Positions 15,474 through 55,463 of a stretch of 64,000 nucleotides of DNA are shown here, in pieces (the first letter of the stretch is position 1; each line of letters opens with the position of its first letter). The DNA comes from Escherichia phage BEU50. Both the position numbers and the translations under genes were made by a program. The notes beneath the pieces were generated by a model. It searched no databases. It was not told the DNA's origin and was given only the letters and a program-made list of their open reading frames with translations. The stretch lies in the sequence record OM632671.1. One strand, written 5' to 3'.

Positions 15474-15475
15474 TT

Positions 15476-16059: not shown

Positions 16060-16061
16060 AC

Positions 16062-16086: not shown

Positions 16087-16121
16087 GGTTTTGAGTTCCA
16101 ATTCAATCTGAGGAAATAGTT

Positions 16122-17117: not shown

Positions 17118-17146
17118 TGTACAACCAAGGATGGTTGGAGTATAAT
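17116..17146 (+). promoter_or_regulatory. early promoter, CAACCAAGGATGGTTGG subfamily
   Basis: TGTACA..CAACCA-agga-TGGTTG..TATAAT 17141-17146. Confidence 0.5.
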
Positions 17147-17172
17147 AAATTTTTCAACATGAGGAATATAAA

Positions 17173-18132
17173 ATGGCTTTTATTACACGTAGAGAACTTA
17201 TCAAAGAATTTACCTCGAACGCATATACTCCAGGACCTAATCCTATCCGTATGCCTGTAAAGACTCCTGAAGAGATTGAGGAAATCTGTTCATATTATGG
17301 GATTACTTCTCGTAAGTTTACTCAATTTGAATGCGTTACTAACACACCCGTTAAAGAGTTCATTAAAAATGGTGAGTTCAGCCGTTTATTAGCCAAACAG
17401 AAACTTCGTAATTTTTGTATTGGTGGTGAAGGACAATATTTCGCTAAGCAGTTCCGGAATAACCTTAACAATCTGATGGCCATTGCTTCTCGTATTCGTC
17501 CTCAAGCAATTAACATGAAACATTTGAAATATACTTACGATAAGTTAGAAATCATGGTTATCGGTGAGAACGAGTTCACTCTTACGTATAAACCTAAGAA
17601 TGATAACGTTGCTCGTGTATTCCACCAAGCGTTGGAAGTTTTAGGTGATAATATCCACCAGATTAAAGCAATTTATTCTCGTGAGCTTAATATTATCGAC
17701 CCTATCAAGAATAAGGGCCATATCGCTATCCAGGCTCGTGTATCTATTGGTAAAAAGGTTCCTGCGCCATGGTGGCACAAAGACTCTGAATACTATCAAA
17801 ATCTTAAAAAGGAAAATGCATTGTTTGAAGCATCGCTTACTGGGACCCCAATTGAACAGGCCGAAGTCCTAAGTGCTTATTCTACTTCGGGTAAATCAAT
17901 GTTTAAAGGTTTGCCAAATGTGTGCAAACTGTCTGCAGTAAAACTAAATGTTTCTAATGACCTTCTTCCGGCCGAAGATTACCGTTACAATCAAATCAAG
18001 GCCACTATGGACCAACTGTCTGTTGAACTTGACAAAGCACAAGCTAAGCTTCGTGATGCTCAAAGTGTTGTAACGAATCTCCAGTTGCAGTATTCTAAAC
18101 TTTTTAACGCAATGAATGCATTAAAATCATAA
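17173..18132 (+). CDS. hypothetical protein with C-terminal coiled coil (319 aa)
   Basis: Own promoter and SD. Confidence 0.55.
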   Translation: MAFITRRELIKEFTSNAYTPGPNPIRMPVKTPEEIEEICSYYGITSRKFTQFECVTNTPVKEFIKNGEFSRLLAKQKLRNFCIGGEGQYFAKQFRNNLNNLMAIASRIRPQAINMKHLKYTYDKLEIMVIGENEFTLTYKPKNDNVARVFHQALEVLGDNIHQIKAIYSRELNIIDPIKNKGHIAIQARVSIGKKVPAPWWHKDSEYYQNLKKENALFEASLTGTPIEQAEVLSAYSTSGKSMFKGLPNVCKLSAVKLNVSNDLLPAEDYRYNQIKATMDQLSVELDKAQAKLRDAQSVVTNLQLQYSKLFNAMNALKS

Positions 18133-18136
18133 AATA

Positions 18137-18166
18137 GTTTACAACCAAGGATGGTTGGAGTATAAT
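18137..18166 (+). promoter_or_regulatory. early promoter, CAACCAAGGATGGTTGG subfamily
   Basis: GTTTAC 18137-18142, TATAAT 18161-18166. Confidence 0.55.
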
Positions 18167-18194
18167 GAATCTATCTTAACGAGAGGAAAATATT

Positions 18195-19145
18195 ATGACA
18201 CGTTCACATTACATTGAATACTTTGCAGGTCTTATCGCTAACGTTCATGCCCAACGTGCTTCTGGTTCATTAGGATTTGATGTTCCACACCGAGATGTAG
18301 TAAGTGGTATTCTTCGAGATTTTGGTACATACATAGGCCAAGAAAATCATATCTGTAAAGATACTCAAAATGCGTATTCTCATTCGTTAGGGACGTTGCT
18401 TCAATGGTTCAAACGTTCTCGTTTATTATCTTCTACTGTAGCTCGCGATAACATTAAAAACTTTATGAAGCCGAGCTTTATTAAATCTGTGACATCTAAA
18501 ACCGATTTGGTTGAATTCACTATTGTTAATGATGTTAAAAAGACTCATTTGGCTGATTGGTTAACTACCATTCCTGAAACTAAATTTGCTGATAAATTTG
18601 CTTGTGAATTCAATAACCAAGTGAATATGCTTTTTAAACATTCTCGTAAATTATTCACAGGCGGCGATGATCGTACAAATAAAGTTCATGCTAAAGATTG
18701 GGTTACTGCAGTGTTCAAACCAACCGGTAATGGTACCGCATCATTATCAATTGATATTCAGGTTCCTTATTATTACTCACGTAATCTCGGCACCATGAAA
18801 GCTGAAGAAATTAAGAAGCACAATAAAACCATTCGTTCGCTGTCTTATAAACTTCGCATGATGTTAAGAATCATGGACGTGGTAGAAATGTATGATGAAA
18901 CCGAAGATAATGGTTCAATGTTATACAGTTCTCGCATTCAAATTAAGTTGAAGAACCCTAACGAGTATAAGCCTAAGCCTATTAAAGAGCCTAAAGCAGA
19001 AAAAGTTGATAACTTAAGAGAAGAACGCGAATATCTCAAATCTCGTCTGAAAGAAGTCGAAGCCCAGATTGCAGAACAAACTAAATCATTAAAAGCTCTG
19101 AATGCAAAAGCGGATGGTTTACGAAATGCCATTGAGGTTTTATAA
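18195..19145 (+). CDS. hypothetical protein with C-terminal coiled coil (316 aa)
   Basis: Own promoter and SD. Confidence 0.55.
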   Translation: MTRSHYIEYFAGLIANVHAQRASGSLGFDVPHRDVVSGILRDFGTYIGQENHICKDTQNAYSHSLGTLLQWFKRSRLLSSTVARDNIKNFMKPSFIKSVTSKTDLVEFTIVNDVKKTHLADWLTTIPETKFADKFACEFNNQVNMLFKHSRKLFTGGDDRTNKVHAKDWVTAVFKPTGNGTASLSIDIQVPYYYSRNLGTMKAEEIKKHNKTIRSLSYKLRMMLRIMDVVEMYDETEDNGSMLYSSRIQIKLKNPNEYKPKPIKEPKAEKVDNLREEREYLKSRLKEVEAQIAEQTKSLKALNAKADGLRNAIEVL

Positions 19146-20579: not shown

Positions 20580-20750
20580 ATGCAAGTTAAATTATTGTAC
20601 CGTTTATTAAAAAATGGCAAGCATGATTGGTATTTGCTTATTAAAACCGATCCGAATTTTTTCTCCGGACAACCATTTACAGTTCGTCCTACTAAACGTC
20701 AGCTTCGCAAAGCTAAACGTTCTCATCGTAACTTTTATAACGTTTACTAA
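20580..20750 (+). CDS. small basic protein (56 aa)
   Basis: Below ORF-track cutoff; Lys/Arg-rich. Confidence 0.3.
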   Translation: MQVKLLYRLLKNGKHDWYLLIKTDPNFFSGQPFTVRPTKRQLRKAKRSHRNFYNVY

Positions 20751-26976: not shown

Positions 26977-27242
26977 AATTAACTCGAATCAGTATAACTG
27001 AAGAAAAGCTGGGCGAATTTTATGTTGACGAATACATGAAAGTCACGTATTTTCCATTCGTTAAAGGTGTTGGTTTTTGGGAAACTCATGTATCTCAATT
27101 AAACGAAGGCGACTATAACGAAACACATGAGAACTTTTTAGATTTTCTTTATAATGCCGGTCTTACTGAGCTTTATATCGATATCCATGAGTTCAAACGT
27201 TTAATGGAAAAAGTGTTTCAGGCTTATTGTTTGCTCCGATAG
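26973..27242 (+). CDS. hypothetical protein (89 aa)
   Basis: ATGA overlap. Confidence 0.45.
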   Translation: MKLTRISITEEKLGEFYVDEYMKVTYFPFVKGVGFWETHVSQLNEGDYNETHENFLDFLYNAGLTELYIDIHEFKRLMEKVFQAYCLLR

Positions 27243-27249
27243 TATCTCG

Positions 27250-27293
27250 TGCTTTAAGATAGGTCTCTAAATATTATGATATAATAGACCTAT
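27250..27293 (+). promoter_or_regulatory. promoter-like element with 8-bp inverted repeat upstream of gene 55
   Basis: TGCTTTAA box; ATAGGTCT / AGACCTAT arms flanking TATTAT and TATAAT. Confidence 0.4.
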
Positions 27294-27314
27294 GAATTGA
27301 GCCAAGAGGTACTT

Positions 27315-27872
27315 ATGACTGAACAAAAACCTAAAAATAACTATGTGAATAATAAAGAGCTTCTCGCTGCTATAATCGAGTGGAAAAAGGAGCTCTTAAA
27401 TAATAAAGACCCAAACAAAATTATTCGTCAGAATGATACCATCGGATTAGCAATTATGCTTATCGCCGAAGGCCTGTCCAAACGTTTCAACTTTTCAGGA
27501 TATACCCAGTCTTGGAAGCAGGAGATGATTGCAGATGGGATTGAAGCCTCTATTAAAGGTCTTCATAATTTCGACGAAACTAAGTACAATAACCCACATG
27601 CATACATAACTCGAGCTTGTTTTAATGCTTTTGTCCAACGTATCAAAAAAGAACGTAAGGAAGTTGCAAAGAAATATAGTTACTTCGTTCATAATGTCTA
27701 CGACAGTCATGACGATGATATGGTAGCGTTGGTAGATGAAACGTTTATTCAAGACATCTACGATAAAATGACGCATTATGAAGAATCCGCTTATAAAGCT
27801 CCTGGGGCTGAAAAGAAGGAAGTTGTTAGCGATTCGCCTAGTTTGGATTTTTTATATGAGGATGACAATTGA
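27315..27872 (+). CDS. 55: late-transcription sigma factor gp55
   Basis: 185 aa, [17 protein letters not shown]...[25 protein letters not shown] matches T4 gp55. Confidence 0.95.
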
Positions 27873-28071
27873 CATCTCTAACTATTTAGAAGAACCTTTT
27901 GACGAAGCAATCCCTTATTTGGTAAAACTGTTGGGTCGTGAATTTAAAATTAATTTTGACATCGACCCTTTGAACCCACATGACGTGTCATTTTCGATAA
28001 ATGGGACTCCGGTTGAGTATGAGTTCTGTATTGAAGAGGATGGGCGTTTTTATTTTAATTTAATGAGATAA
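27862..28071 (+). CDS. hypothetical protein (69 aa)
   Basis: Start chosen at ATG 27862, overlapping the gp55 end. Confidence 0.4.
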
Positions 28072-28072
28072 T

Positions 28073-28396
28073 ATGACTACCGAGATTATTGAAAATAAAG
28101 AAGCAGAAGATGCAGTAGCTAAAATGCTACAAGAAATCCAAAAGAAAAATGAAGCTGAAGCACGTAAAAAATCCGAAAAGATTCTTAAAAAGAATCGTTT
28201 TGAACTAAACCGTCTTTATGCTCATGCTCAAGAAGCAGCAATTCAAAACAACTTCGAAGCTTACGAATATGCTATTAAGAAATCTCGGGATATTCTACGA
28301 CAACCATATAATGACAAGTTAATTAAAATCCAGTGGGTTACTACTCGTCAGGCTATTGAGGACATCATTAATGGCGCTAGTTCAAACAAAGTTTAA
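28073..28396 (+). CDS. hypothetical protein (107 aa)
   Basis: ORF track. Confidence 0.5.
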   Translation: MTTEIIENKEAEDAVAKMLQEIQKKNEAEARKKSEKILKKNRFELNRLYAHAQEAAIQNNFEAYEYAIKKSRDILRQPYNDKLIKIQWVTTRQAIEDIINGASSNKV

Positions 28397-28577
28397 ACGT
28401 CTGAAGCTGAACGCAGGGTTCACCCTTAAATTGGGAGGTCCTCTTTGTGTTAAAATTTCTGAAAAGGAATATCACGACGGTTCTATTACAGAAATTTGTC
28501 CGCCTATTGTAAAGGCAGACCCAAAACAACTCGTGTGGGTCGATTCATTTCAAGTTAAGAAATGGTGGAAACGATGA
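28371..28577 (+). CDS. hypothetical protein (68 aa)
   Basis: ATG 28371 after GAGGA; ORF-track start is TTG. Confidence 0.4.
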   Translation: MALVQTKFKRLKLNAGFTLKLGGPLCVKISEKEYHDGSITEICPPIVKADPKQLVWVDSFQVKKWWKR

Positions 28578-28616
28578 GAGAAATTGATTTAGGCATTTTC
28601 TGAGAGGTGCTTATGC

Positions 28617-28790
28617 ATGACGAACGACCTGACCTCTGAAAATTTCGATAAAATCCGTAAAGGCAAAGCAGAAAGAATGAGACGTTTTAAAGAGTCTTAT
28701 GATAAAGCTAAAGCCGAAGGAACTATTACATACAAGCCCATTAGATTTAAAAGTTCAAATGAGCCTCTGTACGGTGTACTATGTGGATAG
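28617..28790 (+). CDS. small hypothetical protein (57 aa)
   Basis: ATG after GAGAGG; below ORF-track cutoff. Confidence 0.3.
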   Translation: MTNDLTSENFDKIRKGKAERMRRFKESYDKAKAEGTITYKPIRFKSSNEPLYGVLCG

Positions 28791-28814
28791 GAACTCTTCG
28801 GAGTTCCTTTTTTT
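28790..28814 (+). terminator. rho-independent terminator (UUCG tetraloop)
   Basis: GGAACTC-ttcg-GAGTTCC followed by TTTTTTT. Confidence 0.7.
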
Positions 28815-28837
28815 GCTTTATAAACGGATGATAAAAT
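28812..28837 (+). promoter_or_regulatory. MotA-box-like middle promoter upstream of gene 47
   Basis: TTTGCTTTA 28812-28820, then 11 nt, then TAAAAT. Confidence 0.45.
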
Positions 28838-28860
28838 GAATTAACTAATGAGGAAATAAT

Positions 28861-29880
28861 ATGAAAATTTTGCACTTAGGCGACTTCCATATCGGAGTCA
28901 AACAAGACGACCCATGGGTTCAAGATATTCAACGTGATGGTATTCGTCAAGCAATTGAATACTCTAAGAAACACGGGATTAAAACTTGGATTCAGTACGG
29001 TGATTGGTTCGACGTCCGTAAAGCAATAACACATCGTACAATGGAATTCAATCGTGAAATCGTTGATATGATTTCTAAAGCAGGCATTCACGTTCATGTC
29101 ACGATAGGAAACCATGACATGGCGTTTAAGAATACAATAACACCCAACACTGTTTCTGAATTGTTAACTCAATTTGAAAATTTTACTATTTACGAGCATC
29201 CAACTACTGTAGATTTTGACGGATGTCTTATTGATATCATTCCATGGATGTGTGAAGAAAATACAGGTGAAATCTTAGAGCACATCAAGACTTCTTCTGC
29301 AGCGTATTGTGTTGGGCACTGGGAACTGAACGGCTTTTATTTCTATAAAGGGATGAAGTCTCATGGGCTTGAACCTGATTTCTTAAAGACCTATAAACAA
29401 GTCTGGTCCGGCCACTTCCACACAATCTCTGAAGCTGCTAACGTCAAATATATTGGGACACCATGGACCCTTACTGCAGGTGATGAGAACGACCCACGCG
29501 GATTCTGGGTATTTGACACTGATGTTGAACGTATGGAATTTATTCCTAATGAAACAACATGGCATCGACGAATCACTTATCCGTTTAAAGGCAAAATCAA
29601 TTATTCTGATTATACTAATCTAGCCGTACGTGTTATAGTATCAGAAATTGATTCAGAGTTGACTAAGTTTGAATCTGAACTTGAAAAAGTAGTTCACTCT
29701 CTTCGTATGGTTTCTAAAGTTGATAACAGTGTTGAATCTGATGACGACCAGGAAATCGAGATTAAATCACTTCAAGATATCATTAAAGAATATATTGACG
29801 CGATTCCAGATATCTCAGACGAAGACAGAGAAGCGCTGGTCAAATATTCCAACGAACTTTATATTGAGGCAACACAATGA
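28861..29880 (+). CDS. 47: recombination nuclease subunit gp47 (Mre11-like)
   Basis: LHLGDFHIG, GNHD phosphoesterase motifs. Confidence 0.95.
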   Translation: MKILHLGDFHIGVKQDDPWVQDIQRDGIRQAIEYSKKHGIKTWIQYGDWFDVRKAITHRTMEFNREIVDMISKAGIHVHVTIGNHDMAFKNTITPNTVSELLTQFENFTIYEHPTTVDFDGCLIDIIPWMCEENTGEILEHIKTSSAAYCVGHWELNGFYFYKGMKSHGLEPDFLKTYKQVWSGHFHTISEAANVKYIGTPWTLTAGDENDPRGFWVFDTDVERMEFIPNETTWHRRITYPFKGKINYSDYTNLAVRVIVSEIDSELTKFESELEKVVHSLRMVSKVDNSVESDDDQEIEIKSLQDIIKEYIDAIPDISDEDREALVKYSNELYIEATQ

Positions 29881-30140
29881 CTTTAGATGAATTTAACAAT
29901 GCTGGACTCAGGCTTGAAGTTGAAATGGACGTTAAAGATGATGATGGATTCGAGAACACTATCAAGTATTGGATTGAGCCATTACGCGTTGAAGGCAATG
30001 AAGTTAAAGCAGTTCATGTCTGCACCGACTGGGCTGTATCCTTTAACTTCAACATTTTAGATAATGACACACCTAAATCATTGCGAGATATGGCTGTATC
30101 TTGTATTAAGGATGCATACTGTGAAGTTTTCGACATTTGA
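29877..30140 (+). CDS. hypothetical protein (87 aa)
   Basis: ATGA overlap with gene 47. Confidence 0.45.
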   Translation: MTLDEFNNAGLRLEVEMDVKDDDGFENTIKYWIEPLRVEGNEVKAVHVCTDWAVSFNFNILDNDTPKSLRDMAVSCIKDAYCEVFDI

Positions 30141-30156
30141 CATTAATGATGAATTC
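30108..30156 (+). repeat. diverged direct repeat, copy A (SD + GTGAAG start + first codons)
   Basis: AAGGA, GTGAAG and GA(C/T)ATTAATGA(T/C)GAATT in the same spacing as 30312..30358. Confidence 0.5.
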
Positions 30157-30327
30157 ATAGCAAACATTGATTATACCGAAGAAGATTCTAGATATGTTGG
30201 AATAATTTATATTACATCAAAAACAGCACAAGGCGTTGTTTGCATGGCTGAATTTGATGAATACTTTTTAGATTATGATGATATGATAGAATGGTCTAAA
30301 AGATACATTAAAAGGAATCTTTTGTGA
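30121..30327 (+). CDS. hypothetical protein (about 68 aa)
   Basis: GTG start with AAGGA SD; N-terminus duplicated at the start of the downstream HNH gene. Confidence 0.4.
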   Translation: MKFSTFDINDEFIANIDYTEEDSRYVGIIYITSKTAQGVVCMAEFDEYFLDYDDMIEWSKRYIKRNLL

Positions 30328-30358
30328 AGAATTTTAAACTTGATATTAATGACGAATT
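30312..30358 (+). repeat. diverged direct repeat, copy B, at the start of the HNH gene
   Basis: Collinear with 30108..30156. Confidence 0.5.
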
Positions 30359-31178
30359 TTTAATAAAGGAATTAGTTGAAAAATTAGTGTTGAGCGAAGA
30401 AGACGCCAAGTCTTACATTAATTTTATTTCTATGAATTCAACTGTTAAAACTCCGGGTAAAACGGAAGCACATCACGTGCTTCCTAAATCAATATTTCCT
30501 GAATATTTAAAATCTACATGGAATTTAGTTAATTTAAGTCATTTTAATCATTTCAAAGCACATTTCTTATTAGCAAAAGGTAAAAATGGAAAAATGCTAA
30601 ATGCTTTAAATAGAATGATGTCAGGAAAAACATATAAAAATTTATCTTTAGCCGAAGTTGATTTAATAGCTGCTGAATATAGTTTTATAAGACAAGATGT
30701 AAGTGACACAATATCAAAAAGGCTTCAACAATATTATTCAAATCCGCAAAATAGAAATGCTGCTAGAGAAAGGGCATTAAAATATTTTTCAGTAGCAAAA
30801 AATAGGAAAGATAACAAAGAAAGATTAAATAATTTTAAAACAAAACAAAAAATTTCAATGGCTTCAAGGGAATGGTTTAATAACGAAGAAAATAAAATTA
30901 AACACCAAAAGGCTGTTCGTGCTGCTTTATCAAAACCTGAATATAAAATAGCTATATCAAATTCAGTAGCTGCTAGTTGGAAAAATCCGGAGATTAGAAA
31001 AGCTCATATAGCATCTCGACGAAAAGGCTATCATTGGGATAATAAAGATAAATTGTATGAATTGTGGATATCATATAATCGTCCTAAACATGTGATGTTT
31101 AGGAAAATGTTAGTTAAGAATGGATATCCAATAGAGGCTTCATTACAGGCTTTAGTTAAAGAATTTTCTTCATTGTGA
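30324..31178 (+). CDS. HNH homing endonuclease inserted between genes 47 and 46
   Basis: GTG start; AHHVLPKSIFPEY...LVNLSHFNHFKAH motif; Lys-rich NUMOD-like C-terminus. Confidence 0.75.
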   Translation: MKNFKLDINDEFLIKELVEKLVLSEEDAKSYINFISMNSTVKTPGKTEAHHVLPKSIFPEYLKSTWNLVNLSHFNHFKAHFLLAKGKNGKMLNALNRMMSGKTYKNLSLAEVDLIAAEYSFIRQDVSDTISKRLQQYYSNPQNRNAARERALKYFSVAKNRKDNKERLNNFKTKQKISMASREWFNNEENKIKHQKAVRAALSKPEYKIAISNSVAASWKNPEIRKAHIASRRKGYHWDNKDKLYELWISYNRPKHVMFRKMLVKNGYPIEASLQALVKEFSSL

Positions 31179-31193: not shown

Positions 31194-32882
31194 ATGAAAT
31201 CATTTAAACTTAATAGAGTAAAATATAAAAATATAATGTCAGTTGGTCAAAATGGAGTTGACATTCAATTAGATAAAGTCCAAAAGACATTAATCACTGG
31301 TAAAAATGGCGGTGGTAAATCTACGATGTTAGAAGCCATCACTTTTGGACTTTTCGGCAAACCATTTCGTGATGTTAAGAAAGGACAAATCATTAATAGC
31401 ACGAACAAGAAAGAGCTCTTAGTTGAGCTTTGGATGGAATTCGATGATAAAAAATACTTCATTAGACGTGGCCAAAAGCCCAATATTTTCGAAATCTCCG
31501 TTGACGGTGTTCGTCTTGATGAATCTGCCAGCAGTCGTGACTTCCAAGAAGAATTTGAACGTAGCATCGGAATGTCATACGCGTCTTTTAAACAAATCGT
31601 TGTGCTTGGGACGGCAGGGTATACCCCTTTCATGGCTCTTAGCACCCCTGCTCGTAGAAAACTTGTCGAAGACCTTTTAGAAGTCGGCACACTCGCTGAA
31701 ATGGATAAAATCAATAAGTCTCAAGTTCGAGAACTTAATTCCCAGGGACAAGTTCTCGATGCCAAGAAAGATGGTGTTATCCAACAAATTAAGATTTATA
31801 ACGAGAATATCGAACGTCAAAAGAAATTATCTGGTGATAATGTAGCGCGTCTACAGAATATGTATGACGACCTAGCCAAAGAAGCTCGTTCATTAAAAGC
31901 AGAAATCGAAGAAGCTAATGAGCGACTACTTAATATCGTTCTTGATGAAGACCCTACTGAGGCATTCAACAAGATCGGACAAGAAGCATTCTTGATTAAA
32001 TCTAAAATTGACTCATATAACAAAGTTATTAAGATGTATCATGATGGTGGTACATGTCCTACTTGTGCATCACAGTTGCACCAGGGTGATCCTATTGTCT
32101 CTAAGATTACCGATAAGCTTCACGAATGTAATCACTCATTCGAGCAACTTACATGTCACAGAGATAATCTGAGTGTCCTAGTGGACGAATATAGAGCTAA
32201 TGTTAAGACTAAACAGGACCTTGCATCTGATATTCGTACCAAGAAACAAGCAATGATTGCCACTATTGATAAAGCTAAGAAAGTTAAAGCTGCAATAGAA
32301 CAAGCCTCGGCGGAATTTATCGACCATGCCGATGAGATAGCTTTGCTTCAAAAAGAACTTGATAAAATCATTAAAACAAAATCGGATATCGTTCTTGAAA
32401 AATACCATCGCGGTATTATCACAGATATGTTAAAAGATTCTGGTATTAAAGGTGCTATCATTAAAAAATATGTGCCTCTGTTCAACAAGCAGATTAACCA
32501 TTATCTTAAAATCATGGAAGCTGATTATGTGTTTTCTATTGACGAAGAATTCAATGAATCTATAAAATCACGTGGACGTGAAGAATTCAGTTATGCTTCG
32601 TTTAGTCAAGGTGAAAAGGCACGTATCGATATCGCATTGTTGTTTACATGGCGAGATATCGCTGAAAAGGTCTCTGGCGTTAGAATCAATACATTAATTA
32701 TGGACGAAGTCATGGATTCCGCGACTGATTCTGAAGGTATTAAAGCTATTTCAACAATTCTTAACTCTCTAACCGATGCAAACGTGTTTATAATTAGTCA
32801 CAGAGACCATGACCCACAAGCTTATGGACAACATCTTCAAATGAGCAAAGTTGGACGATTTACTGTAATGAAAGCCTCTTAA
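31194..32882 (+). CDS. 46: recombination ATPase gp46 (Rad50-like)
   Basis: Walker A GKNGGGKST, CPTC zinc hook, long coiled coil, C-terminal signature region. Confidence 0.95.
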   Translation: MKSFKLNRVKYKNIMSVGQNGVDIQLDKVQKTLITGKNGGGKSTMLEAITFGLFGKPFRDVKKGQIINSTNKKELLVELWMEFDDKKYFIRRGQKPNIFEISVDGVRLDESASSRDFQEEFERSIGMSYASFKQIVVLGTAGYTPFMALSTPARRKLVEDLLEVGTLAEMDKINKSQVRELNSQGQVLDAKKDGVIQQIKIYNENIERQKKLSGDNVARLQNMYDDLAKEARSLKAEIEEANERLLNIVLDEDPTEAFNKIGQEAFLIKSKIDSYNKVIKMYHDGGTCPTCASQLHQGDPIVSKITDKLHECNHSFEQLTCHRDNLSVLVDEYRANVKTKQDLASDIRTKKQAMIATIDKAKKVKAAIEQASAEFIDHADEIALLQKELDKIIKTKSDIVLEKYHRGIITDMLKDSGIKGAIIKKYVPLFNKQINHYLKIMEADYVFSIDEEFNESIKSRGREEFSYASFSQGEKARIDIALLFTWRDIAEKVSGVRINTLIMDEVMDSATDSEGIKAISTILNSLTDANVFIISHRDHDPQAYGQHLQMSKVGRFTVMKAS

Positions 32883-33595
32883 TGAGGCTTATATTTACAA
32901 TTATCGAAATGCCAACGATGCATATTAGCAGGGATCCCTATTTTATCGCAATGAGGACATTTAATTTTCTTGTCCTCTTTTTTCTTTCTGTTAGGATTTG
33001 ATTTACAGAATTTTATATGTGGCTTTAACGCCGATAACTTAGTAGTTAAGCCACAAAACGGGCAAGAATCTTCTTTCCAAATTTTCGTGGCCATGGTTTT
33101 AATTATTTTATCTTTTGTTTCTTGATCAAGTTTTACTATTTTAGGCGTTGGACCTTGTTTACAATTATCAAAATGCCAACGTCGCATGTTTCCTTCAGTT
33201 CCAGTTAAACCACAATGTGGACAGGTAATCTTTGGTTTATTTTTTGCAGACTCGGACATTTTCTTACGGGTTTCAGCAGTGAATTCTTTATTCTTTTGAA
33301 CTTCTTGATTCTTACGTCGAAGCCATCCAAATAATTTGTTTTTGCTTCTATCTGCTTTAGGAGATGATATGGTCATCATACGAGCGGCATATATTAAAGA
33401 GGCATTATCTGGATGGATTTTTACCAACAGTTGATGTGCCAAATAATGTTCTTCCGGTGTTAAGTCTACTAAGTTTAAAGCATCATCACTTCCACCTAAA
33501 CATTGTGGTATAATGTGATGACGTTCTGTATAACCATCTAAACTTCTTGATTTAGCATTGGTGATAAGCTTTTCGTATATTGAGTTATAATTCAT
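32879..33595 (-). CDS. HNH homing endonuclease (minus strand)
   Basis: MNYNSIY N-terminus; HHIIPQCLGGSDDALNLVDLTPEEH; C-terminal CPxCG zinc-finger repeats. Confidence 0.8.
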   Translation of the reverse strand: MNYNSIYEKLITNAKSRSLDGYTERHHIIPQCLGGSDDALNLVDLTPEEHYLAHQLLVKIHPDNASLIYAARMMTISSPKADRSKNKLFGWLRRKNQEVQKNKEFTAETRKKMSESAKNKPKITCPHCGLTGTEGNMRRWHFDNCKQGPTPKIVKLDQETKDKIIKTMATKIWKEDSCPFCGLTTKLSALKPHIKFCKSNPNRKKKEDKKIKCPHCDKIGIPANMHRWHFDNCKYKPH

Positions 33596-39829: not shown

Positions 39830-40465
39830 ATGAAAACTACTCCTATTACTATCGCTATTGACGCAATCATAAAACAAGCTTCTTCTTTGGCCGCTATGGC
39901 CAAAGTAATTAGTCAAAACCCTGCTCGTTATAATGCTATTCTAGAAACTCTTCGACGCCCGGGACTTAGTAATTATGAAAGCCGAGTAATTATTACAGGT
40001 GTTGGTAAGAATGCTAATATTGCAACTAAAGCTTCTGAGACATTTGCTTCACTCGGTATCCCGAGTATGTACTTGAACACTGGGCATTATTCTCACGGTG
40101 ATGCAGGATTCATTGCGCCTAATGATGTGTTGATTCATATTAGTCGTTCTGGTAAAACTGAAGAAATGATAGGCGTGGCTAAGCATCTTAAAATGATTCG
40201 ACCGAACGTCAAACAGATTCTGTTGCATTGTAACCCAGACATTCCACAAGAAAATGAAGCCCTTTTTGATTACTCTTTCTGTACAGGCATCGCAGTAGAG
40301 GTTGATGAGAATTCTCTGGCTCCGACTATGTCCACTACATTGTTGTTAGCGCTTATCGATACGTTTGCTATCAACCTTTCGTCTGAACGTGGATTTACCT
40401 CTAATGACTTCCTTAAGTTCCACCCTGGTGGTGCACTAGGTGCCATGTTACGAGGCGAACAATGA
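39830..40465 (+). CDS. SIS-domain sugar-phosphate isomerase, KdsD/GutQ-like arabinose-5-phosphate isomerase without CBS domains
   Basis: ITGVGKNANIATKASETFASLGIPS, HGDAGFIAPNDVLIHISRSGKTEE, LAPTMSTT...FHPGGALG parallel the KdsD SIS-domain motifs. Confidence 0.75.
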   Translation: MKTTPITIAIDAIIKQASSLAAMAKVISQNPARYNAILETLRRPGLSNYESRVIITGVGKNANIATKASETFASLGIPSMYLNTGHYSHGDAGFIAPNDVLIHISRSGKTEEMIGVAKHLKMIRPNVKQILLHCNPDIPQENEALFDYSFCTGIAVEVDENSLAPTMSTTLLLALIDTFAINLSSERGFTSNDFLKFHPGGALGAMLRGEQ

Positions 40466-40605: not shown

Positions 40606-40646
40606 AATAGTGTACAATACTCCTACTTACCAATGAGGACCACAAC

Positions 40647-42332
40647 ATGAAAAAAGCTGTTATTCTTGGTGCTGGACTGGCAACTCGTTTATATCCAATT
40701 ACTCACCATATTCCTAAGGTGCTTGTTAACTATAAACAAGACACTATTCTGAGCAATTTGTATACAATTTATTCTGACCTAGGCGCAGATGAAATTATTG
40801 TAGTAGTTCATTCAAAATTTGCTGAAACTGTTCGAGCTTATTGTGAGCAAGAAGGGTTCAATGTGACTATTCGTACAGTTGATGAAGCGTATGGTTCTGC
40901 TTATGCTCTTGCTAAATTACACAAAGATTTAGACGGCCATAATGTAATTGTTAACTGGTGTGATATTATTCCGGATTTTGGTTCATGGTCTTGGAATGTT
41001 AACGCAATCTATGTTAAGGGTGACGAATGTCGATATAATTTCGACGGTGAAAATATCACTAACGTAGGTTCAACAGGTGGTAATGTTGTAGGAATTTATC
41101 AGTTCAAAGACTGGGAATTCTATATGGGTTCTACTGATGAGGAAATTCATGAATACTGCAAAGGACGTGATTTCGTAGAATTCCTTTACGGCAGCGCATT
41201 CAATAAATCAGAGCTTATGAATCTAATTGATTTAGGTGATATGCCTAAACTTGAAAAAGCTCATGAAGTTCGTGAACTTAATCGTAGTTTTAATGCAGTT
41301 GAAATTGGTGAAGAAACTGTAACTAAATTCGCATTAACCGAACAGGGCCGAGCTCTTCAGAAAGATGAGATTTCGTGGTATTTGAAAGTGAAATCAGATT
41401 CAGTCCCTCAGTTAGTTTCTGTTAATGAAAATAACTTTGAAATGGAACGCATTAAAGGTAAGCCGGCATTTGAATATATTAAATCCAAATCAAGTCTTGC
41501 TCGTCCACAAATTGTTGATGCAATTTTAGATGCACTGAAATTCAGCACAGACACTTATTTTGTAAGTCCTGAAACTGTTCGTCGTGATTTCACTAAAGAA
41601 TTCTATACGAAAGTTATTGATCGTTGTGAAAGCATTCAACCATTGATTGATTCATTTGGTAAAATCACACATGTGAACTACACTAAGATTGGACGTCTGA
41701 AGCCAATGCTGAAACAAGCTTTAGAACACCTTATTCGTTATCATAACCGTTCTCAGGGACAGTACTCTGTTATTCATGGTGACCCGAACTTCAGTAATAC
41801 TATGATTACTGATAACGGCGAAGTCAAATTTATCGACCCTCGTGGATATTTTGGCGAAACCAAGATTTACGGGCCAAAATTGTACGATGAAGCTAAAGTG
41901 CTTTACGCTGTTTCAGGTTATGATGAATTCAATGCTAATCCGACCTGGGGACAGTTTACTATTGATGAAACAACTTGTAATGTGACTATTAACATCAATC
42001 CATTAGTTTACAAATATGGAAAGATGAGTTCGTTTAACGAGTATCATCATTTGGCAGTGGCAATTATCTGGATTGCATTAGGTGGTTATTTCAAGAATAA
42101 TCCACTTAAAGCGGTAGCCGCATATTATAAAGGTATGGAACTTCTGACTAAGCAATTACGTAACATGGGCCGTGTACTTCAGGACGGCTCTATTAGTTAT
42201 GACGTAGCAGAACCTGTAACGGCTACTCTGATTACAAAAAATCCTGGTAAATGGGTACTAACTGATAAAGAAACTGGTGTTTCCTATCGTCCAATCGGTG
42301 GCGATATCACTCATCAATGGGAACGAATTTGA
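40647..42332 (+). CDS. bifunctional sugar-1-phosphate nucleotidyltransferase / sugar kinase
   Basis: N-terminal ILGAGLATRLYPIT NTP-transferase motif; C-terminal VIHGDPNFSNTMITDNGEVKFIDPRGYFG kinase catalytic loop. Confidence 0.7.
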   Translation: MKKAVILGAGLATRLYPITHHIPKVLVNYKQDTILSNLYTIYSDLGADEIIVVVHSKFAETVRAYCEQEGFNVTIRTVDEAYGSAYALAKLHKDLDGHNVIVNWCDIIPDFGSWSWNVNAIYVKGDECRYNFDGENITNVGSTGGNVVGIYQFKDWEFYMGSTDEEIHEYCKGRDFVEFLYGSAFNKSELMNLIDLGDMPKLEKAHEVRELNRSFNAVEIGEETVTKFALTEQGRALQKDEISWYLKVKSDSVPQLVSVNENNFEMERIKGKPAFEYIKSKSSLARPQIVDAILDALKFSTDTYFVSPETVRRDFTKEFYTKVIDRCESIQPLIDSFGKITHVNYTKIGRLKPMLKQALEHLIRYHNRSQGQYSVIHGDPNFSNTMITDNGEVKFIDPRGYFGETKIYGPKLYDEAKVLYAVSGYDEFNANPTWGQFTIDETTCNVTININPLVYKYGKMSSFNEYHHLAVAIIWIALGGYFKNNPLKAVAAYYKGMELLTKQLRNMGRVLQDGSISYDVAEPVTATLITKNPGKWVLTDKETGVSYRPIGGDITHQWERI

Positions 42333-43078
42333 TACATTATCTCTACAAAACTACTAATCTTATAAACGGTAAAGTTTATTTAGGAATGCACTCGGCTGAA
42401 GAAGCCGAGCCTTTAGATTTATATAAAGGTTCTGGTAAATTATATAAAAAGGCTGAAAGGAAATACGGTAAGGAAAATTTTCTTAAAGAAATCATTTCCT
42501 ACCATAGCTCAAGAGAAGAATTAAAAATAGCTGAAAAGGCTCTAATAACATTAGACATAGTTAAAGACCCGAATTATTACAATCTTAAAACTGGTGGCGA
42601 AGGTGGTTCTGACGGGTTATCCCAAAGGTCCAAGGATAAAATTTCTAAGGCAAATAAAGGACGTTTAGTTGGTGATAAAAACCCAAGATGGGGTAAAACT
42701 TTGTCAGCTGAATCTATAGCTAGGGGTAAAGAAAAGCACAGGAGGTATGGTAAACCTGCATTACATGGTCTAAAGATTAATGTAGATGGCAAATATTATG
42801 AATCCTGTCGGGAAGCGGCTAAAGATTTGGGTATATCTTCTGCCACGATTCAAAAGAGAGTAAAATCGCCTAAATATCTTAATTATCGATATCAGGACGA
42901 AAGCAAAAATGCTCACAAGTCTCAAAAATTTGTTAAAATAAACGAAAATTACTATGAATCTCTTAGGATAGCTGAAAAGAAAACGGGTATTCCTAGAAAG
43001 CGTATAGCTGATAATATTAAAAATTCTATTGAAGGATATTGCTATGAAACCATTACATCTTTGCGTGGACGTCGATGA
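42317..43078 (+). CDS. GIY-YIG homing endonuclease (Seg-like)
   Basis: IHYLYKTTNLINGKVYLGMH GIY-YIG motif; C-terminal NUMOD/HTH-like region; overlaps both neighbours. Confidence 0.75.
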   Translation: MGTNLIHYLYKTTNLINGKVYLGMHSAEEAEPLDLYKGSGKLYKKAERKYGKENFLKEIISYHSSREELKIAEKALITLDIVKDPNYYNLKTGGEGGSDGLSQRSKDKISKANKGRLVGDKNPRWGKTLSAESIARGKEKHRRYGKPALHGLKINVDGKYYESCREAAKDLGISSATIQKRVKSPKYLNYRYQDESKNAHKSQKFVKINENYYESLRIAEKKTGIPRKRIADNIKNSIEGYCYETITSLRGRR

Positions 43079-43418
43079 TTGTATAACAGAGTGGAATAAC
43101 AATCGTGATTACGTGAACTTCAAACCAGACGTCGAAATGGTGTCTGCCATTAATGCCCTGTATGAGGCAGGGCATACCATAACGCTTTACACTGCTCGCG
43201 GTATGAAGTCAGTAGGTCCTGGTCGTATAGCAATTGACATTCTCCCAAGTCTGATTCAGAACTTGGCAAACATTGGCTTGAAGTACCATAATTTGCTAAC
43301 ACATAAACCAGTATATGATTGGATTATCGACGACAAAGCTATGCGTCCTGACGAATTCAAAGCTCTTATGAATAAAGGCGAATTCGAAACATTTAAATCA
43401 TATAAACCGAATCTATAA
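43044..43418 (+). CDS. HAD-superfamily phosphatase
   Basis: DVDDCIT motif I, downstream T, K and IIDD motifs; ORF-track start 43029 is TTG. Confidence 0.6.
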   Translation: MKPLHLCVDVDDCITEWNNNRDYVNFKPDVEMVSAINALYEAGHTITLYTARGMKSVGPGRIAIDILPSLIQNLANIGLKYHNLLTHKPVYDWIIDDKAMRPDEFKALMNKGEFETFKSYKPNL

Positions 43419-43464: not shown

Positions 43465-44637
43465 ATGCAAAAAAAAATGAATACTTTTAAAATCGGAACG
43501 AATTTTGATTTAGCTCTTCTTGATAAAATCGTAGAGCTCAATAAAACTTATCCTAATAGCTTGATAAACGAAGTATACGGCTCTACAAGAGAAATGGCTT
43601 TTGTAGCAGCCAGACCTGATTTTAGGCTTCCTGACGTTGACAAAAAGATGTTAGAAGATTACGTTAAACGTTGTAACGAATTAGGTATTTGCTTTAACTA
43701 TACACTCAACACGATAAATCCTGGTTCAAAAAGAGAACTAGTTGAGTGGAAGAAGAAAGCTATTCAGGATTATGTTCAGTATCTTTGGTCAATAGGCGTA
43801 TGGCGTATTACTATCGCTAACCCTGTTGTTATGGAAATTGTTCGTGAAGTCAATAAAGACATTGAGATTGAAGTTTCAACAATTCTACATGTCGATGCTG
43901 TAACTCAAATCAAATACTTGCATGACCAATATAATATCAAAAAGGTCTGCTGTGGAATTCATAAGAACCGTTCAGTTTCTTTCCTGAAGCGTGCAGCAGA
44001 GTTTTGCAATAAGAACAATATAATATTTGAAGTTCTTGTAAATGAGTTCTGTTCTAATGCTGGTAAAGGGTATACAACACATTGTAGCTATCGTGACTCT
44101 TGCTATATTTTCCATAGTACTGATGTTACAGCTGATGATGCTAAATCCTTAAACGGATATCCAATGCAGCACTGTATTAAAGCTCGTGATACAGACCCAT
44201 TTAACTGGTTGAGAACTCGTTTTGTTCGTCCTCAAGATTTGAAACTTTATAATGATATTGGTATCACTCAATTCAAAGTTTCAGGACGTACAGGTAGCAC
44301 AGACTACATTTTGAAAGTTCTTGAAGCATACGCTTCTGAAAAGTTTGAAGGTAATTTGTTAGAACTGTGGAAGCCTTTAGAGACTATTTTCACTCTTGAA
44401 AACGAAACTGAGTTTTCACATACGGTAAATATTGAAACCTCTTTGTTAGATGGCTTTTTAGAAAAAAGGTGGTTCAGACATCCAGATTTCGATTGTGCTA
44501 ATGAAATCTGCGGGACGACGTGTACATATTGTGAAAGATATTATAAACGTCAGTTATCTAAAAATGGGTTATCAGAAAATTCTATATCTATTATTGATAT
44601 AACTAACTCTGACGACGCTTTGAGGTACCCGGAATGA
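43465..44637 (+). CDS. hypothetical Cys-rich protein, possible Fe-S enzyme (390 aa)
   Basis: C-terminal CANEICGTTCTYC (CxxxCxxC within it) plus CSYRDSCYIF; family not assignable by eye. Confidence 0.5.
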   Translation: MQKKMNTFKIGTNFDLALLDKIVELNKTYPNSLINEVYGSTREMAFVAARPDFRLPDVDKKMLEDYVKRCNELGICFNYTLNTINPGSKRELVEWKKKAIQDYVQYLWSIGVWRITIANPVVMEIVREVNKDIEIEVSTILHVDAVTQIKYLHDQYNIKKVCCGIHKNRSVSFLKRAAEFCNKNNIIFEVLVNEFCSNAGKGYTTHCSYRDSCYIFHSTDVTADDAKSLNGYPMQHCIKARDTDPFNWLRTRFVRPQDLKLYNDIGITQFKVSGRTGSTDYILKVLEAYASEKFEGNLLELWKPLETIFTLENETEFSHTVNIETSLLDGFLEKRWFRHPDFDCANEICGTTCTYCERYYKRQLSKNGLSENSISIIDITNSDDALRYPE

Positions 44638-44915: not shown

Positions 44916-45632
44916 ATGGGAAAACATAACACAATGAAATATATCAAAGCCGCAGATTTTCAAGCCGCATTTAAAGCAGTCAATCGTGAAATTTTAGAAA
45001 ACCCGGAATTCGTAACTGATTCTCGTATTGGGCGTTGTAATGAAATTGGGTCTATGACAGTAGTTGTTGACACTCCATCATCATTCAAAATGACCGACCC
45101 ACGTATTAACCGCATCTCTTATGAATATGCCGAAGACTTCTGGAAGTTTATGATTTCTGGTGGTACCAACGCAGAAGAAGCGTTTAAGGCATATCCTAAT
45201 GTCGCTAAATTTATTTCTAAACCAAAATCAGATGTTTTGCCGGCGAACTTCAACACTTTCTATGGTCCTCGCATTGCGGCCCAATTACCAGCTCTTCTAA
45301 AAGAACTTAAAGAGAAGCCTAACTCTCGAAGAGTTGTGTTCCAAATTCTAGAAAGTTCTGATCAGGCTTTGCTTGATTCAGACGAAACGCTTGAATATCC
45401 ATGTACTGACTCAGTGACTTATTATATTCGTGATGGTAAGCTTTATACCCACTGTCATATGCGTTCTCAGAACTGTGCTGTTGTTATGCAGTTGGATTTT
45501 TATCTCCAAGGAAAATTACTTCATTATATCGCTAACGAATGTGGTGTAGAAGTTGGTGATTATACTCATACCATGGTAAGTGCCCATGTGTTTGAACGTG
45601 ATTTTGATTATGTTAAAGGATTCCTTGACTAA
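44916..45632 (+). CDS. 42: thymidylate-synthase-family deoxypyrimidylate hydroxymethylase (gene 42-like, divergent)
   Basis: PNSRRVVFQI, CTDSVTYYIRDGKLYTHCHMRSQN and SAHVFERDF parallel T4 gp42/ThyA catalytic regions, with low overall similarity to T4 gp42 as I recall it. Confidence 0.65.
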   Translation: MGKHNTMKYIKAADFQAAFKAVNREILENPEFVTDSRIGRCNEIGSMTVVVDTPSSFKMTDPRINRISYEYAEDFWKFMISGGTNAEEAFKAYPNVAKFISKPKSDVLPANFNTFYGPRIAAQLPALLKELKEKPNSRRVVFQILESSDQALLDSDETLEYPCTDSVTYYIRDGKLYTHCHMRSQNCAVVMQLDFYLQGKLLHYIANECGVEVGDYTHTMVSAHVFERDFDYVKGFLD

Positions 45633-46531
45633 TGGCTATTTTCCGCGTACCTATTTTGAGTATGCGGTCTTATGAAACTGGACAGTATGCCATCCTTAAG
45701 GATGGCAACTTCCAACTTCATTTGCACCGTGCTAATCCAGGTGATGTGATTACATATCCACGTAATGCATCCGATATTAAAGAATGTGAACGTCTTTTCC
45801 CAGAATTTAAGTTTGTTCCATTATGGTATAAAGATAACGCGTATAACACTCGTAAATATTTCTGGTCTGAAAATGAATTTGTGGTTGATTCATTAATCGC
45901 TTATTATGATTGTGATTTTCTAATCACAGATATCACTGGATACGACGGCGCTTTTGATGTAGAATTCAATTTCAATATCACTGCAGACCCTAATAAACCA
46001 CGTTTTTATATTGACGAATTCTTAAAAACCGACATGTTGTCGGTTAATCGTTCAATCCAAACAACTGTGTTGAATAAACGTCAAAAGGAAGTGCTGGTTA
46101 ACGCAGGTGCAGATGGTAATAAGATTATCATAACCCAGAAAGTTATACGTCCTTCCATCATGCAGCGTCTTGTAGGTGATTTAGCTCCTATTCATCTAGA
46201 TGGTATTTTTCATCCATTTCGAATTAGTGACCCGTGCTATCGGTTTGAACAAGTGGTTGAATGTGCAATTCAATTAGGCCAACCGCTTTATATAACCGAT
46301 CCAAATAATAGCTTCGACAGAAATAAGTATCCTGAAGAAGCGCTGATTCGAATTTTTAAACCAACTAAAACTGAGTACTATCAAATTCTTAAAGGACGTC
46401 CGAAGATTCAATATTTCGAAAATCCTGAAGAAGTATTCCATCCAGGTCTTGGTGAGTTCATCTACTTTAATGCTTTAATTTCTTCACCGTATAATATACC
46501 TAAATACGAAGATGTCGTAATCGAGGAATAA
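45632..46531 (+). CDS. hypothetical protein in the beta-glucosyltransferase position (299 aa); candidate DNA sugar transferase
   Basis: No recognisable motif; placement between gene 42 and uvsX only. Confidence 0.45.
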   Translation: MAIFRVPILSMRSYETGQYAILKDGNFQLHLHRANPGDVITYPRNASDIKECERLFPEFKFVPLWYKDNAYNTRKYFWSENEFVVDSLIAYYDCDFLITDITGYDGAFDVEFNFNITADPNKPRFYIDEFLKTDMLSVNRSIQTTVLNKRQKEVLVNAGADGNKIIITQKVIRPSIMQRLVGDLAPIHLDGIFHPFRISDPCYRFEQVVECAIQLGQPLYITDPNNSFDRNKYPEEALIRIFKPTKTEYYQILKGRPKIQYFENPEEVFHPGLGEFIYFNALISSPYNIPKYEDVVIEE

Positions 46532-46532
46532 A

Positions 46533-47081
46533 ATGGCTAAAATTATTTTAGTAGATGGCCCGGATAATGCTGGTAAAACAACTTTCATTAATGACATAAT
46601 GGAAATTAGTGAAAGATATGTAAAGATTGATTTCCCTAAACGAACAGTTGATGGACGTTTCGATGTTAAGTCTCGAAATGAAGTTGGCTGTTTCGAAACG
46701 ATGTTGAATTATTTAGACCCTACTAAGATTTATCTGTTAGACCGTGGATATATTAGTAACTGGGTTTACGGACGTATTCGACAAGATGCGGACTCTGTTC
46801 TTGACGTTTATGAACAGGATTATGTTCGTCTTTGCCAAAACCATGATGTGTTCACAATTATTTTAACACGTAACGAAATGACTGAAAGTTTTGAAGACGA
46901 CCTTATTACTTTGTCTTCATTCGGTTTTAATACAGTCATTTCACATTTTGAAGAGTTTGCAATTCATAACAAAATCCAAACGTATCAATTACTTAATCAT
47001 GATGGTGCTAACAAAGTTATAGGATTTAATGCAAGCGAACGTAATGTTTTGATTACAGAAATCATCAAATGGGCTCGTTAA
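46533..47081 (+). CDS. P-loop nucleotide kinase (thymidylate-kinase-like)
   Basis: Walker A VDGPDNAGKTT and DRGY (DRY-like) motif. Confidence 0.6.
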   Translation: MAKIILVDGPDNAGKTTFINDIMEISERYVKIDFPKRTVDGRFDVKSRNEVGCFETMLNYLDPTKIYLLDRGYISNWVYGRIRQDADSVLDVYEQDYVRLCQNHDVFTIILTRNEMTESFEDDLITLSSFGFNTVISHFEEFAIHNKIQTYQLLNHDGANKVIGFNASERNVLITEIIKWAR

Positions 47082-54853: not shown

Positions 54854-54941
54854 AATATCTCCTTAGTTACCTATTATTTATTACGCTTTATAAAATTAAT
54901 GTTAGAATTAACTCTCTTATACTGAATTGAAAGGAAAAATA

Positions 54942-55463
54942 ATGGCACACTTTAACGAATGTTCACAACTTATTTCTGGTGTTGATAAAGCAGAAGAAGC
55001 TTATTTTAATGCTCTGATTCACGAAGATAAAGACCCACTGCAGGTAATGCTTGATATGCAGAAATCTTTACAGGTTCGTCTGGCAAATGACAAGCCTGAA
55101 CATAACAAACATCCTGATGAATTGGCCACTGCTGGTGATGTTGTTGATTGGCTGCGTAATCAGAAAGATTATATTGATGATGAATTCCGTGAACTGCTGA
55201 CTTCACTTGGTGGTATGAGCAATGGTGAGAAAACCGCTAGCTCTGTATGGAAGCCATGGAAAGCACAACATGCTGAATATCGAAATCGTCGTATCGATGA
55301 ACTGTCTCCTGAAGACCAGCTTGAAATTAAATTCGAGATGATTGATATCCTCCACTTTGTTCTGAATATGTTCCAAGGTCTGGGTCTTTCCGCTGAAGAA
55401 ATCTTTAAACTTTACTACTTGAAAAACCAACACAACTTTGAACGTCAGGATAATGGTTACTGA
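54942..55463 (+). CDS. 56: dCTPase/dUTPase gp56 (MazG-like)
   Basis: MAHFNEC start as in T4 gp56; ORF-track start 54927 is TTG. Confidence 0.9.
   Translation: MAHFNECSQLISGVDKAEEAYFNALIHEDKDPLQVMLDMQKSLQVRLANDKPEHNKHPDELATAGDVVDWLRNQKDYIDDEFRELLTSLGGMSNGEKTASSVWKPWKAQHAEYRNRRIDELSPEDQLEIKFEMIDILHFVLNMFQGLGLSAEEIFKLYYLKNQHNFERQDNGY

Follow-up and report, generated by a model that had tools for sequence, protein, structure and literature searches.

The closest described system is that of phage RB69. Thomas et al. reported arabinose in RB69 DNA in 2018, found no glucosyltransferase homologue, and suggested that ORF003c is the transferase and that the module between gene 43 and uvsX is a UDP-arabinose route (PMC6024577). 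Lee et al., in 2026, used MS/MS and NMR to define the cytosine of RB69 as beta-D-Araf-(1,3)-alpha-D-Araf-5-hydroxy-2'-deoxycytidine; the DNA contains mono- and di-arabinofuranosyl-5-hydroxy-dC, with ions at m/z 376 and 508, and is fully arabinosylated, gp48, acting with a dNMP kinase, introduces 5-hydroxy-dC into the DNA of E. coli in a reaction that uses O2 and involves bound flavin, and gp46:47 and gp3 are the transferases proposed to add the first and the second sugar, respectively (PMC13326640). As cited in PMC13326640, He et al. (2026) contributed a crystal structure from phage HY126 and the AfhE and AfhF steps of UDP-arabinose synthesis. Mono- to tri-arabinosyl cytosine is found in Acinetobacter phage DLP3 and Shewanella phage Thanatos, which, like the DNA described here, have a homologous 5-hydroxy-dCMP synthase, isomerase, kinase/pyrophosphorylase, and phosphatase and a syntenic first transferase (PMC13326640) but which differ from it in transferase and sugar number (three in DLP3 and one in Thanatos), in host, and in genus. 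In phage T4, the sugar is glucose from host UDP-glucose, and a-gt, which encodes 400 aa in the T4 record, lies between genes 55 and 47, as a sequence-only reading of the present DNA had stated; T2 and T6 differ from both T4 and the DNA described here in having a-gt without mobB and a beta-alpha-glucosyltransferase (ba-gt) after gene 42.

We analyzed 64,000 nucleotides of Escherichia phage BEU50 (sequence record OM632671.1), a stretch referred to here as the window. Because positions 27000-30200 and 32934-64000 are near-identical to Escherichia phage NRG-P0074 (99.4% identity with the full length aligned and, against NRG-P0074 132000-163066, 99.0% identity, respectively), the window can be assigned by this similarity to an RB69-like T-even phage of the genus Mosigvirus, NRG-P0074 being classified in the Straboviridae, Tevenvirinae, Mosigvirus. 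Identity between RB69 and the window is approximately 98%, and it is 98.0% for the DNA of the arabinosylation cluster alone. At least 80% of 27000-30200 is covered by 146 phage records (NRG-P0074 and 145 others), nearly all of them at an identity of at least 95%, and the matches include APCEc01, JK45, HY126 (98.7% identity), and the BASEL phages AlbertHofmann and ChristianSchoenbein. Since these 146 records have the same arrangement, an interval without a-gt between genes 55 and 47 is not an accident of assembly.

The sequence-only reading had claimed that a-gt is missing from this interval and that only small ORFs of 57 to 107 aa occupy it, and both statements held. Gene 55, the late sigma factor gene (27315..27872, plus strand; phrog_234, E 3.7e-68; NRG-P0074 annotation, late sigma transcription factor), is separated by 988 bp from gene 47, which encodes an SbcD-like nuclease subunit (28861..29880, plus strand; phrog_100, E 1.7e-135; Pfam Metallophos); this distance is too short for a 400-aa gene, and the best tblastn match to T4 a-gt within it had an E value of 1.4. 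Four ORFs of 69, 107, 68, and 57 aa, all on the plus strand, fill the space: an a-gt.5 orthologue of the DUF5491 family (27862..28071; Pfam PF17595, E 5e-13; 47% identity to T4 a-gt.5), whose first 11 nt lie within gene 55 and which an alternative ATG farther upstream in gene 55 would lengthen to 97 aa; an a-gt.4 orthologue of the DUF2654 family (28073..28396; Pfam PF10849, E 1e-27; 56% identity to T4 a-gt.4); an a-gt.3 orthologue (28371..28577, or 73 aa if begun at a TTG; phrog_1648, E 1.6e-34; 70% identity to T4 a-gt.3); and an a-gt.2 orthologue of the DUF5486 family (28617..28790; Pfam PF17588, E 4.5e-28; 72% identity to T4 a-gt.2). The three Pfam scores in this small-gene set were 49.5, 96.6, and 97.3 bits, compared with curated cut-offs of 25 to 27. 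In T4, the order is 55, a-gt.5, a-gt.4, a-gt.3, a-gt.2, mobB, a-gt, 47.1, and 47; the four ORFs of the window follow gene 55 in that order at 47 to 72% pairwise identity, and mobB, a-gt, and 47.1 are the only T4 genes of the interval that are lacking, so that 2283 bp in T4 correspond to 70 nt here. The order 55, a-gt.5, a-gt.4, a-gt.3, a-gt.2, 47, with no a-gt, is shared with RB69 and other Mosigvirus phages (NRG-P0074, HY126, and Bas46/47). Judged by orthology, the four small ORFs are conserved neighbors of a-gt that are also present in T4 and T2 and not replacements for it. As they are retained in a probably nonglucosylating phage, the "a-gt" in the names a-gt.2 to a-gt.5 is positional only. 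A literature search found no function for a-gt.2 to a-gt.5 or for DUF2654; their sequences stay at 47 to 72% identity across phages with different sugars and bases, and their function may therefore be independent of glucosylation.

The junction between the a-gt.2 orthologue, which ends at 28790, and gene 47, which starts at 28861, leaves 70 nt and no room for a gene of approximately 1.2 kb. Directly 3' of the a-gt.2 stop codon lies a terminator-like hairpin that has a UUCG loop and precedes a run of T residues (28789..28808, plus strand), detected in a terminator scan and annotated as a terminator in NRG-P0074; the same hairpin, together with the box that follows it, is found after a-gt.2 in T4 and T2. 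The next segment (28812..28860, plus strand), read from the sequence, consists of TTTGCTTTA, which is MotA-box-like, an 11-nt spacer, TAAAAT, and the Shine-Dalgarno sequence AATGAGGA and leads into the gene 47 ATG. A MotA-box consensus is known for middle promoters, and the TTTGCTTTA box may thus be a MotA-dependent middle promoter. This is the site that holds mobB, a-gt, and 47.1 in T4 and a-gt in T2. The T2 spacer after a-gt.2, with its hairpin, TTGCTTTA box, TAAAAT, and AATGAGGA, is collinear with that of the window until the start codon, and this codon opens a-gt (400 aa) in T2 and gene 47 in the window. Because the two spacers are collinear up to the ATG, gene 47 of the window occupies the T2 a-gt start position and uses an a-gt-type ribosome-binding region. 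A similar hairpin and box occur once more in T4 and T2, between a-gt and the genes 47.1 and 47, so that two hairpin/promoter modules flank a-gt (and mobB in T4) in those phages, compared with the one in the window, which, unlike T2, lacks a second hairpin and promoter before gene 47. No degraded remnant of a-gt was found by tblastn in the 70-nt spacer or in the small ORFs. The difference in layout may stem from an insertion in Tequatrovirus or from a deletion in Mosigvirus. Tentatively, the hairpin and MotA-box-like promoter after a-gt.2 could be a reusable docking site for the gain and loss of DNA-sugar-transferase cassettes among T-even phages, although we regard this reading as rather doubtful; if it were true, Mosigvirus phages would have either an empty ancestral site or one produced by precise start-codon-to-start-codon excision.

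The genes that bear on DNA modification are located 11 kb downstream of this interval, in a cluster (39830-47081) between gene 43 (37078-39789) and uvsX (47180-48352), where T4 has imm.1, imm, 42, b-gt, and segA. Its proteins, except an endonuclease, are 92 to 100% identical to RB69 ORF045c to ORF055c, and the cluster is conserved at an identity of at least 97% across approximately 150 Mosigvirus records. On the plus strand, it opens with a predicted arabinose-5-phosphate isomerase, the counterpart of RB69 ORF055c (39830..40465; Pfam SIS, E 1e-10; 100% identity to ORF055c), followed by an intact 561-aa ORF (40647..42332) that corresponds to RB69 gp52:53 and HY126 AfhE and is predicted to be a bifunctional sugar kinase and UDP-arabinose pyrophosphorylase, a function taken from PMC13326640; it has a Pfam NTP_transferase match in its N-terminal part and kinase-like matches in its C-terminal part and is 99.5 to 99.7% identical to RB69 ORF053c and ORF052c. 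We considered this ORF as a glycosyltransferase and rejected it as a nucleotidyltransferase plus kinase, the same conclusion as that reached by Thomas et al. (PMC6024577). A predicted HAD-like sugar phosphatase (43029..43418, plus strand; phrog_1238; 97.5% identity to RB69 ORF051c), whose start in the NRG-P0074 annotation corresponds to approximately 43044, is the counterpart of RB69 gp51 and HY126 AfhF, its function likewise coming from PMC13326640. With it, the predicted set for UDP-arabinofuranose supply, namely, isomerase, bifunctional kinase/pyrophosphorylase, and HAD phosphatase, is complete in the window. Downstream are a peptidase-U32-like protein corresponding to RB69 gp50 (43465..44637, plus strand; Pfam Peptidase_U32, E 7.5e-11; 99.5% identity to ORF050c), a 79-aa ORF (44634-44873), and, at the end of the cluster, a thymidylate-kinase-like nucleotide kinase corresponding to RB69 gp45 (46533..47081, plus strand; phrog_761, E 3.7e-45; 98.9% identity to ORF045c). 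Beyond the cluster, a gene 56 dCTPase homologue was found at 54927..55463 on the plus strand (Pfam dUTPase_2 and PRA-PH; NRG-P0074 annotation, NTP pyrophosphohydrolase).

None of the cluster ORFs is interrupted in the window. This holds also for the 561-aa and 299-aa genes, which appear split in the old RB69 GenBank entry; the splits are reported to be sequencing errors (PMC6024577; PMC13326640). The window differs from RB69 in having an extra GIY-YIG homing endonuclease gene inside the cluster (253 aa, 42317-43078; GIY-YIG/NUMOD) and an HNH endonuclease gene before gene 46, both of which are common only to the window and NRG-P0074 among the records compared. On the basis of size and position, the 253-aa ORF was considered as the counterpart of gene 42 and was rejected as a GIY-YIG/NUMOD homing endonuclease, the real counterpart being a thymidylate-synthase (ThyA) homologue at 44916..45632 (plus strand).

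This ThyA homologue, the counterpart of RB69 gp48, occupies the position of T4 gene 42 and is a predicted 5-hydroxy-dCMP synthase. It is 98.7% identical to RB69 ORF048c/gp48 and matches the crystallized protein of PDB 9IQC/9IR2 at 233 of 238 residues (98% identity to 9IQC), in contrast to only 24.8% identity to T4 gp42; those entries are probably the HY126 enzyme, their codes being adjacent to 9IQZ, "phage HY126 glycosyltransferase." The gene that follows, in the T4 b-gt slot (45632..46531, plus strand), begins at the stop codon of the synthase and encodes a 299-aa protein, the counterpart of RB69 gp46:47, 97 to 100% identical to RB69 ORF047c and ORF046c. A fold search found two Rossmann-like domains and a structural match to solved GT-B enzymes, and the protein is thus a GT-B-fold glycosyltransferase and a candidate for the first, base-proximal arabinosyltransferase. 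It is a fold-level relative of a-gt within the window but not its orthologue, and its comparison with b-gt by BLASTP gave an E value of 0.91. The homology searches to which the sequence-only reading pointed turned up no a-gt or b-gt orthologue in the window or the searched parts of NRG-P0074; the GT-B-fold protein came from the fold search. Its family is represented in 348 phage records and reaches Acinetobacter phages at approximately 45% identity. A second GT-B transferase is encoded in NRG-P0074 at 166971-168071, approximately 4 kb past the end of the window, and matches PDB 9IQZ at an E value of 2e-251. Neither transferase was detected by BLAST or had a family match in Pfam or PDB sequence searches or in PHROGs; only the fold search identified them. 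Since the second transferase gene (the homologue of RB69 gp3/ORF003c) and the gene 1 dNMP kinase gene lie outside the 64-kb window, we infer their presence in this genome from the 99%-identical relative. The gene 43-uvsX cluster, the ThyA homologue, and the GT-B transferase are thus shared with RB69 and other Mosigvirus phages.

We consider it very likely that this phage lacks glucosyl-hmC and has arabinosylated 5-hydroxycytosine made through an RB69-type pathway instead. The interpretation combines what the sequence shows, namely, which genes are present, their orthology to those of RB69 and HY126, and a GT-B fold, with chemistry established in the RB69 and HY126 literature; by analogy, we infer that the DNA chemistry of this phage is the same as that of RB69 and HY126, as well as which transferase acts first. 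In this lineage, the only genes of the 55-47 interval are the conserved early/middle genes a-gt.5 to a-gt.2; the hairpin and a middle-promoter-like element come next and lead directly to gene 47, and the T4 cassette of mobB, a-gt, the second hairpin and promoter, and 47.1 is absent. In the proposed scheme, the flavin-dependent thymidylate-synthase homologue (44916-45632) would convert dCMP to 5-hydroxy-dCMP; kinases and the gene 56 dCTPase, which removes dCTP, would bias the pool so that 5-hydroxy-dC replaces dC in replication; and the phage isomerase (39830-40465), kinase/pyrophosphorylase (40647-42332), and HAD phosphatase (43029-43418) would provide UDP-arabinofuranose. The GT-B enzyme at 45632-46531 may then put the first arabinose on the 5-hydroxyl, either of the nucleotide or of the DNA, and the second GT-B enzyme, whose gene outside the window adjoins rIIA, would add the second arabinose. 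Assignment of the first of these steps to 45632-46531 is a proposal made by analogy with RB69, and single DLP3 transferases had no in vitro activity on 5hoC DNA (PMC13326640). The logic would resemble that of T4, with which the window shares a ThyA-family enzyme for C5-oxygenated dCMP, a dCTPase directed against dCTP, GT-B enzymes that add a UDP-sugar, the 55-47 and 43-uvsX neighborhoods, and the four small a-gt.N genes. The window differs from T4 in lacking a-gt, b-gt, mobB, and 47.1 and in having a ThyA homologue that is 25% identical to gp42 and, according to the literature, a flavin-dependent hydroxylase; in contrast to the glucose that T4 draws from host UDP-glucose, the sugar of the predicted pathway would be arabinofuranose from phage-encoded enzymes.

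The identity of the acceptor base separates this interpretation from the alternative that fares best, namely, that the DNA contains arabinosyl-hmC, as was proposed for RB69 in 2018, in which case the gene 42 counterpart would be a genuine dCMP hydroxymethylase and the sugar would be the sole difference from T4. That was the original reading of the RB69 HPAEC and MALDI data (PMC6024577), and many database records annotate the gene as dCMP hydroxymethylase, but the base fragment of the RB69 nucleoside in MS/MS has an m/z of 128.05, corresponding to 5-hydroxycytosine, and not the 142.06 of hmC; NMR joins arabinose C1 to cytosine C5 via oxygen; and gp48 with the dNMP kinase yields 5-hydroxy-dC in E. 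coli DNA with incorporation of 18O from O2 (PMC13326640). The enzyme encoded in the window shares 98.7% of its residues with gp48 but only 25% with T4 gp42, and we regard arabinosyl-hmC as improbable. The suggestion of the sequence-only reading that the phage does not glucosylate hmC and uses another modification is thus supported in its negative part by the lack of a-gt, b-gt, and ba-gt homologues in the window and the searched parts of NRG-P0074 and in its positive part by the arabinosylation cluster, but the acceptor implied is 5-hydroxycytosine and not hmC.

A less probable alternative is that the glucosyltransferase genes have moved, with a-gt, b-gt, or both located elsewhere in the genome and the DNA containing glucosyl-hmC as in T4. 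T4-like genomes are mosaic, with transferase genes in plastic regions, and the window comprises 64 kb of approximately 168 kb. We take into account the tblastn searches (word size, 2; E value up to 10) with T4 a-gt (400 aa), T4 b-gt (351 aa), and T2 ba-gt (280 aa) as queries against the window and NRG-P0074 1-50000 and 132000-168357, in which nothing below an E value of 0.01 was found with any query; the search thus came up empty in the window and in 86 kb more of this 99%-identical phage. For a-gt, the best match in the window had an E value of 0.014 over 69 aa at 990-1169; for b-gt, which the sequence-only reading had also listed as missing, the best E values were about 2 for the window and 0.55 for NRG-P0074; and for ba-gt, of which the window, unlike T2, has no homologue, the best E value was 0.75. 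The weak a-gt matches at 990-1169 and at 14193-14432 (E 0.03) were treated as noise and fall in ORFs belonging to PHROGs without an assigned function. One of the ORFs at these two positions has sub-threshold P-loop-like Pfam matches. The remaining 49 kb of NRG-P0074 (50001-99066), covered by annotation only, is annotated as an unbroken late structural block of head, tail, and baseplate genes in which the sole large unnamed protein is one of 318 aa in a PHROG of unknown function, and no gene named transferase is annotated in 50001-100000. BlastP searches of RB69 found no homologue of a-gt, b-gt, or ba-gt (PMC6024577; PMC13326640), in contrast to the a-gt homologues present in 657 phage records, the majority of which are from Tequatrovirus or Klebsiella phages. 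Because the gene 42 counterpart is of the 5-hydroxy-dCMP type, the hmC acceptor would also be missing, and relocation of the glucosyltransferase genes is largely refuted. It is equally improbable that the modified cytosine is left unglycosylated as in a T4 a-gt b-gt double mutant, with the sugar genes being relics or serving another purpose, given that the cluster ORFs are all intact, that they are at least 97% identical across approximately 150 Mosigvirus records, that the transferase family extends to 348 phage records, and that arabinosylation of RB69 DNA is complete (PMC13326640).

That RB69-type phages lack a-gt and b-gt and use arabinose instead has been known since 2018, and the 2026 papers described the 5-hydroxycytosine chemistry and the enzymes behind it; the layout of the junction after a-gt.2 is a minor new detail. 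The assignment of an arabinosylated 5-hydroxycytosine pathway to this phage is of value for annotation, as many records call the ThyA homologue "dCMP hydroxymethylase" and both transferases "hypothetical protein." Because Pfam and PHROGs miss both transferases, a sequence-only search for glucosyltransferases would wrongly return no DNA glycosyltransferase. The chemistry of the DNA affects cutting or sequencing of phage DNA by standard methods and the response of the phage to defenses based on type IV restriction, CRISPR, or DNA glycosylases.

A module comprising a hairpin with a UUCG loop and a promoter-like TTGCTTTA...TAAAAT element lies 3' of a-gt.2, the small conserved neighbor of the alpha-glucosyltransferase gene a-gt, in all three phages: in the window at 28789-28860, in T2 on the minus strand of its locus (L008) at 16590-16680, and in T4 on the minus strand of its locus (L002), where 18560-18630 and 20680-20740 are the two T4 copies, one of them after a-gt. 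T4 and T2 have a second copy after a-gt, and the a-gt cassette is therefore flanked by the module, whereas the single copy in the window leads into gene 47, with a ribosome-binding region resembling that upstream of T2 a-gt. Gene 46 is flanked by two further homing-endonuclease genes, at 30324-31178 (plus strand) and 32879-33595 (minus strand). The former encodes an HNH Mob-like protein (31% identity to T4 mobB over 98 aa; E 3e-8), so that the window too has a mob-type element near gene 47, but, compared with T4, on the opposite side of that gene and without a-gt. Among the relatives compared, only NRG-P0074, the nearest, has a counterpart of this gene; in the others, the alignment to the window ends at about 30035, before it. 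T4 a-gt gave a weak tblastn match (E 0.03), probably due to chance, in the first of four successive proteins of 316 to 333 aa encoded on the plus strand at 14046-19145 (phrog_1250, phrog_2257, DUF7235, and phrog_1435). That protein has subthreshold Pfam matches to P-loop/AAA and HTH families and is separated from the second by a 175-aa ORF (15532-16059).

Within the putative arabinosylation cluster, the ORFs at 40647-42332 (561 aa) and 45632-46531 (299 aa) are each unbroken, in contrast to the RB69 GenBank record, where a frame change splits both counterparts in two (1149-2835 and 5432-6332 of L007, the RB69 locus), in agreement with reported RB69 sequencing errors (PMC6024577, PMC13326640). 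The cluster also contains, on the plus strand at 42317-43078, a GIY-YIG/NUMOD (Seg-like) homing-endonuclease gene whose two ends overlap the adjoining genes: the 3' end of that for the 561-aa kinase/pyrophosphorylase and the 5' end of that for the phosphatase. Of the matches listed, NRG-P0074 alone has this endonuclease in common with the window. In RB69 and some 150 other Mosigvirus records the cluster aligned as two pieces with 90% cover. A conserved 79-aa ORF (44634-44873, plus strand; phrog_8601; 92% identity to RB69 ORF049c) sits between the U32-like gene and the putative 5-hydroxy-dCMP synthase gene; it is not among the genes given a role in the pathway as published. Elsewhere, the gene 61.2 position is occupied by a predicted counter-defense gene, a homologue of the anti-DarT factor AdfA (52259-52918, plus strand; PF23813, E 8e-120).

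Neither putative DNA arabinosyltransferase (window 45632-46531; 34972-36072 of L003, the NRG-P0074 locus) matched any Pfam family; they belong to phrog_3891 and phrog_8302, labeled "unknown function," and most GenBank records name both hypothetical. Standard annotation pipelines therefore overlook both of them.
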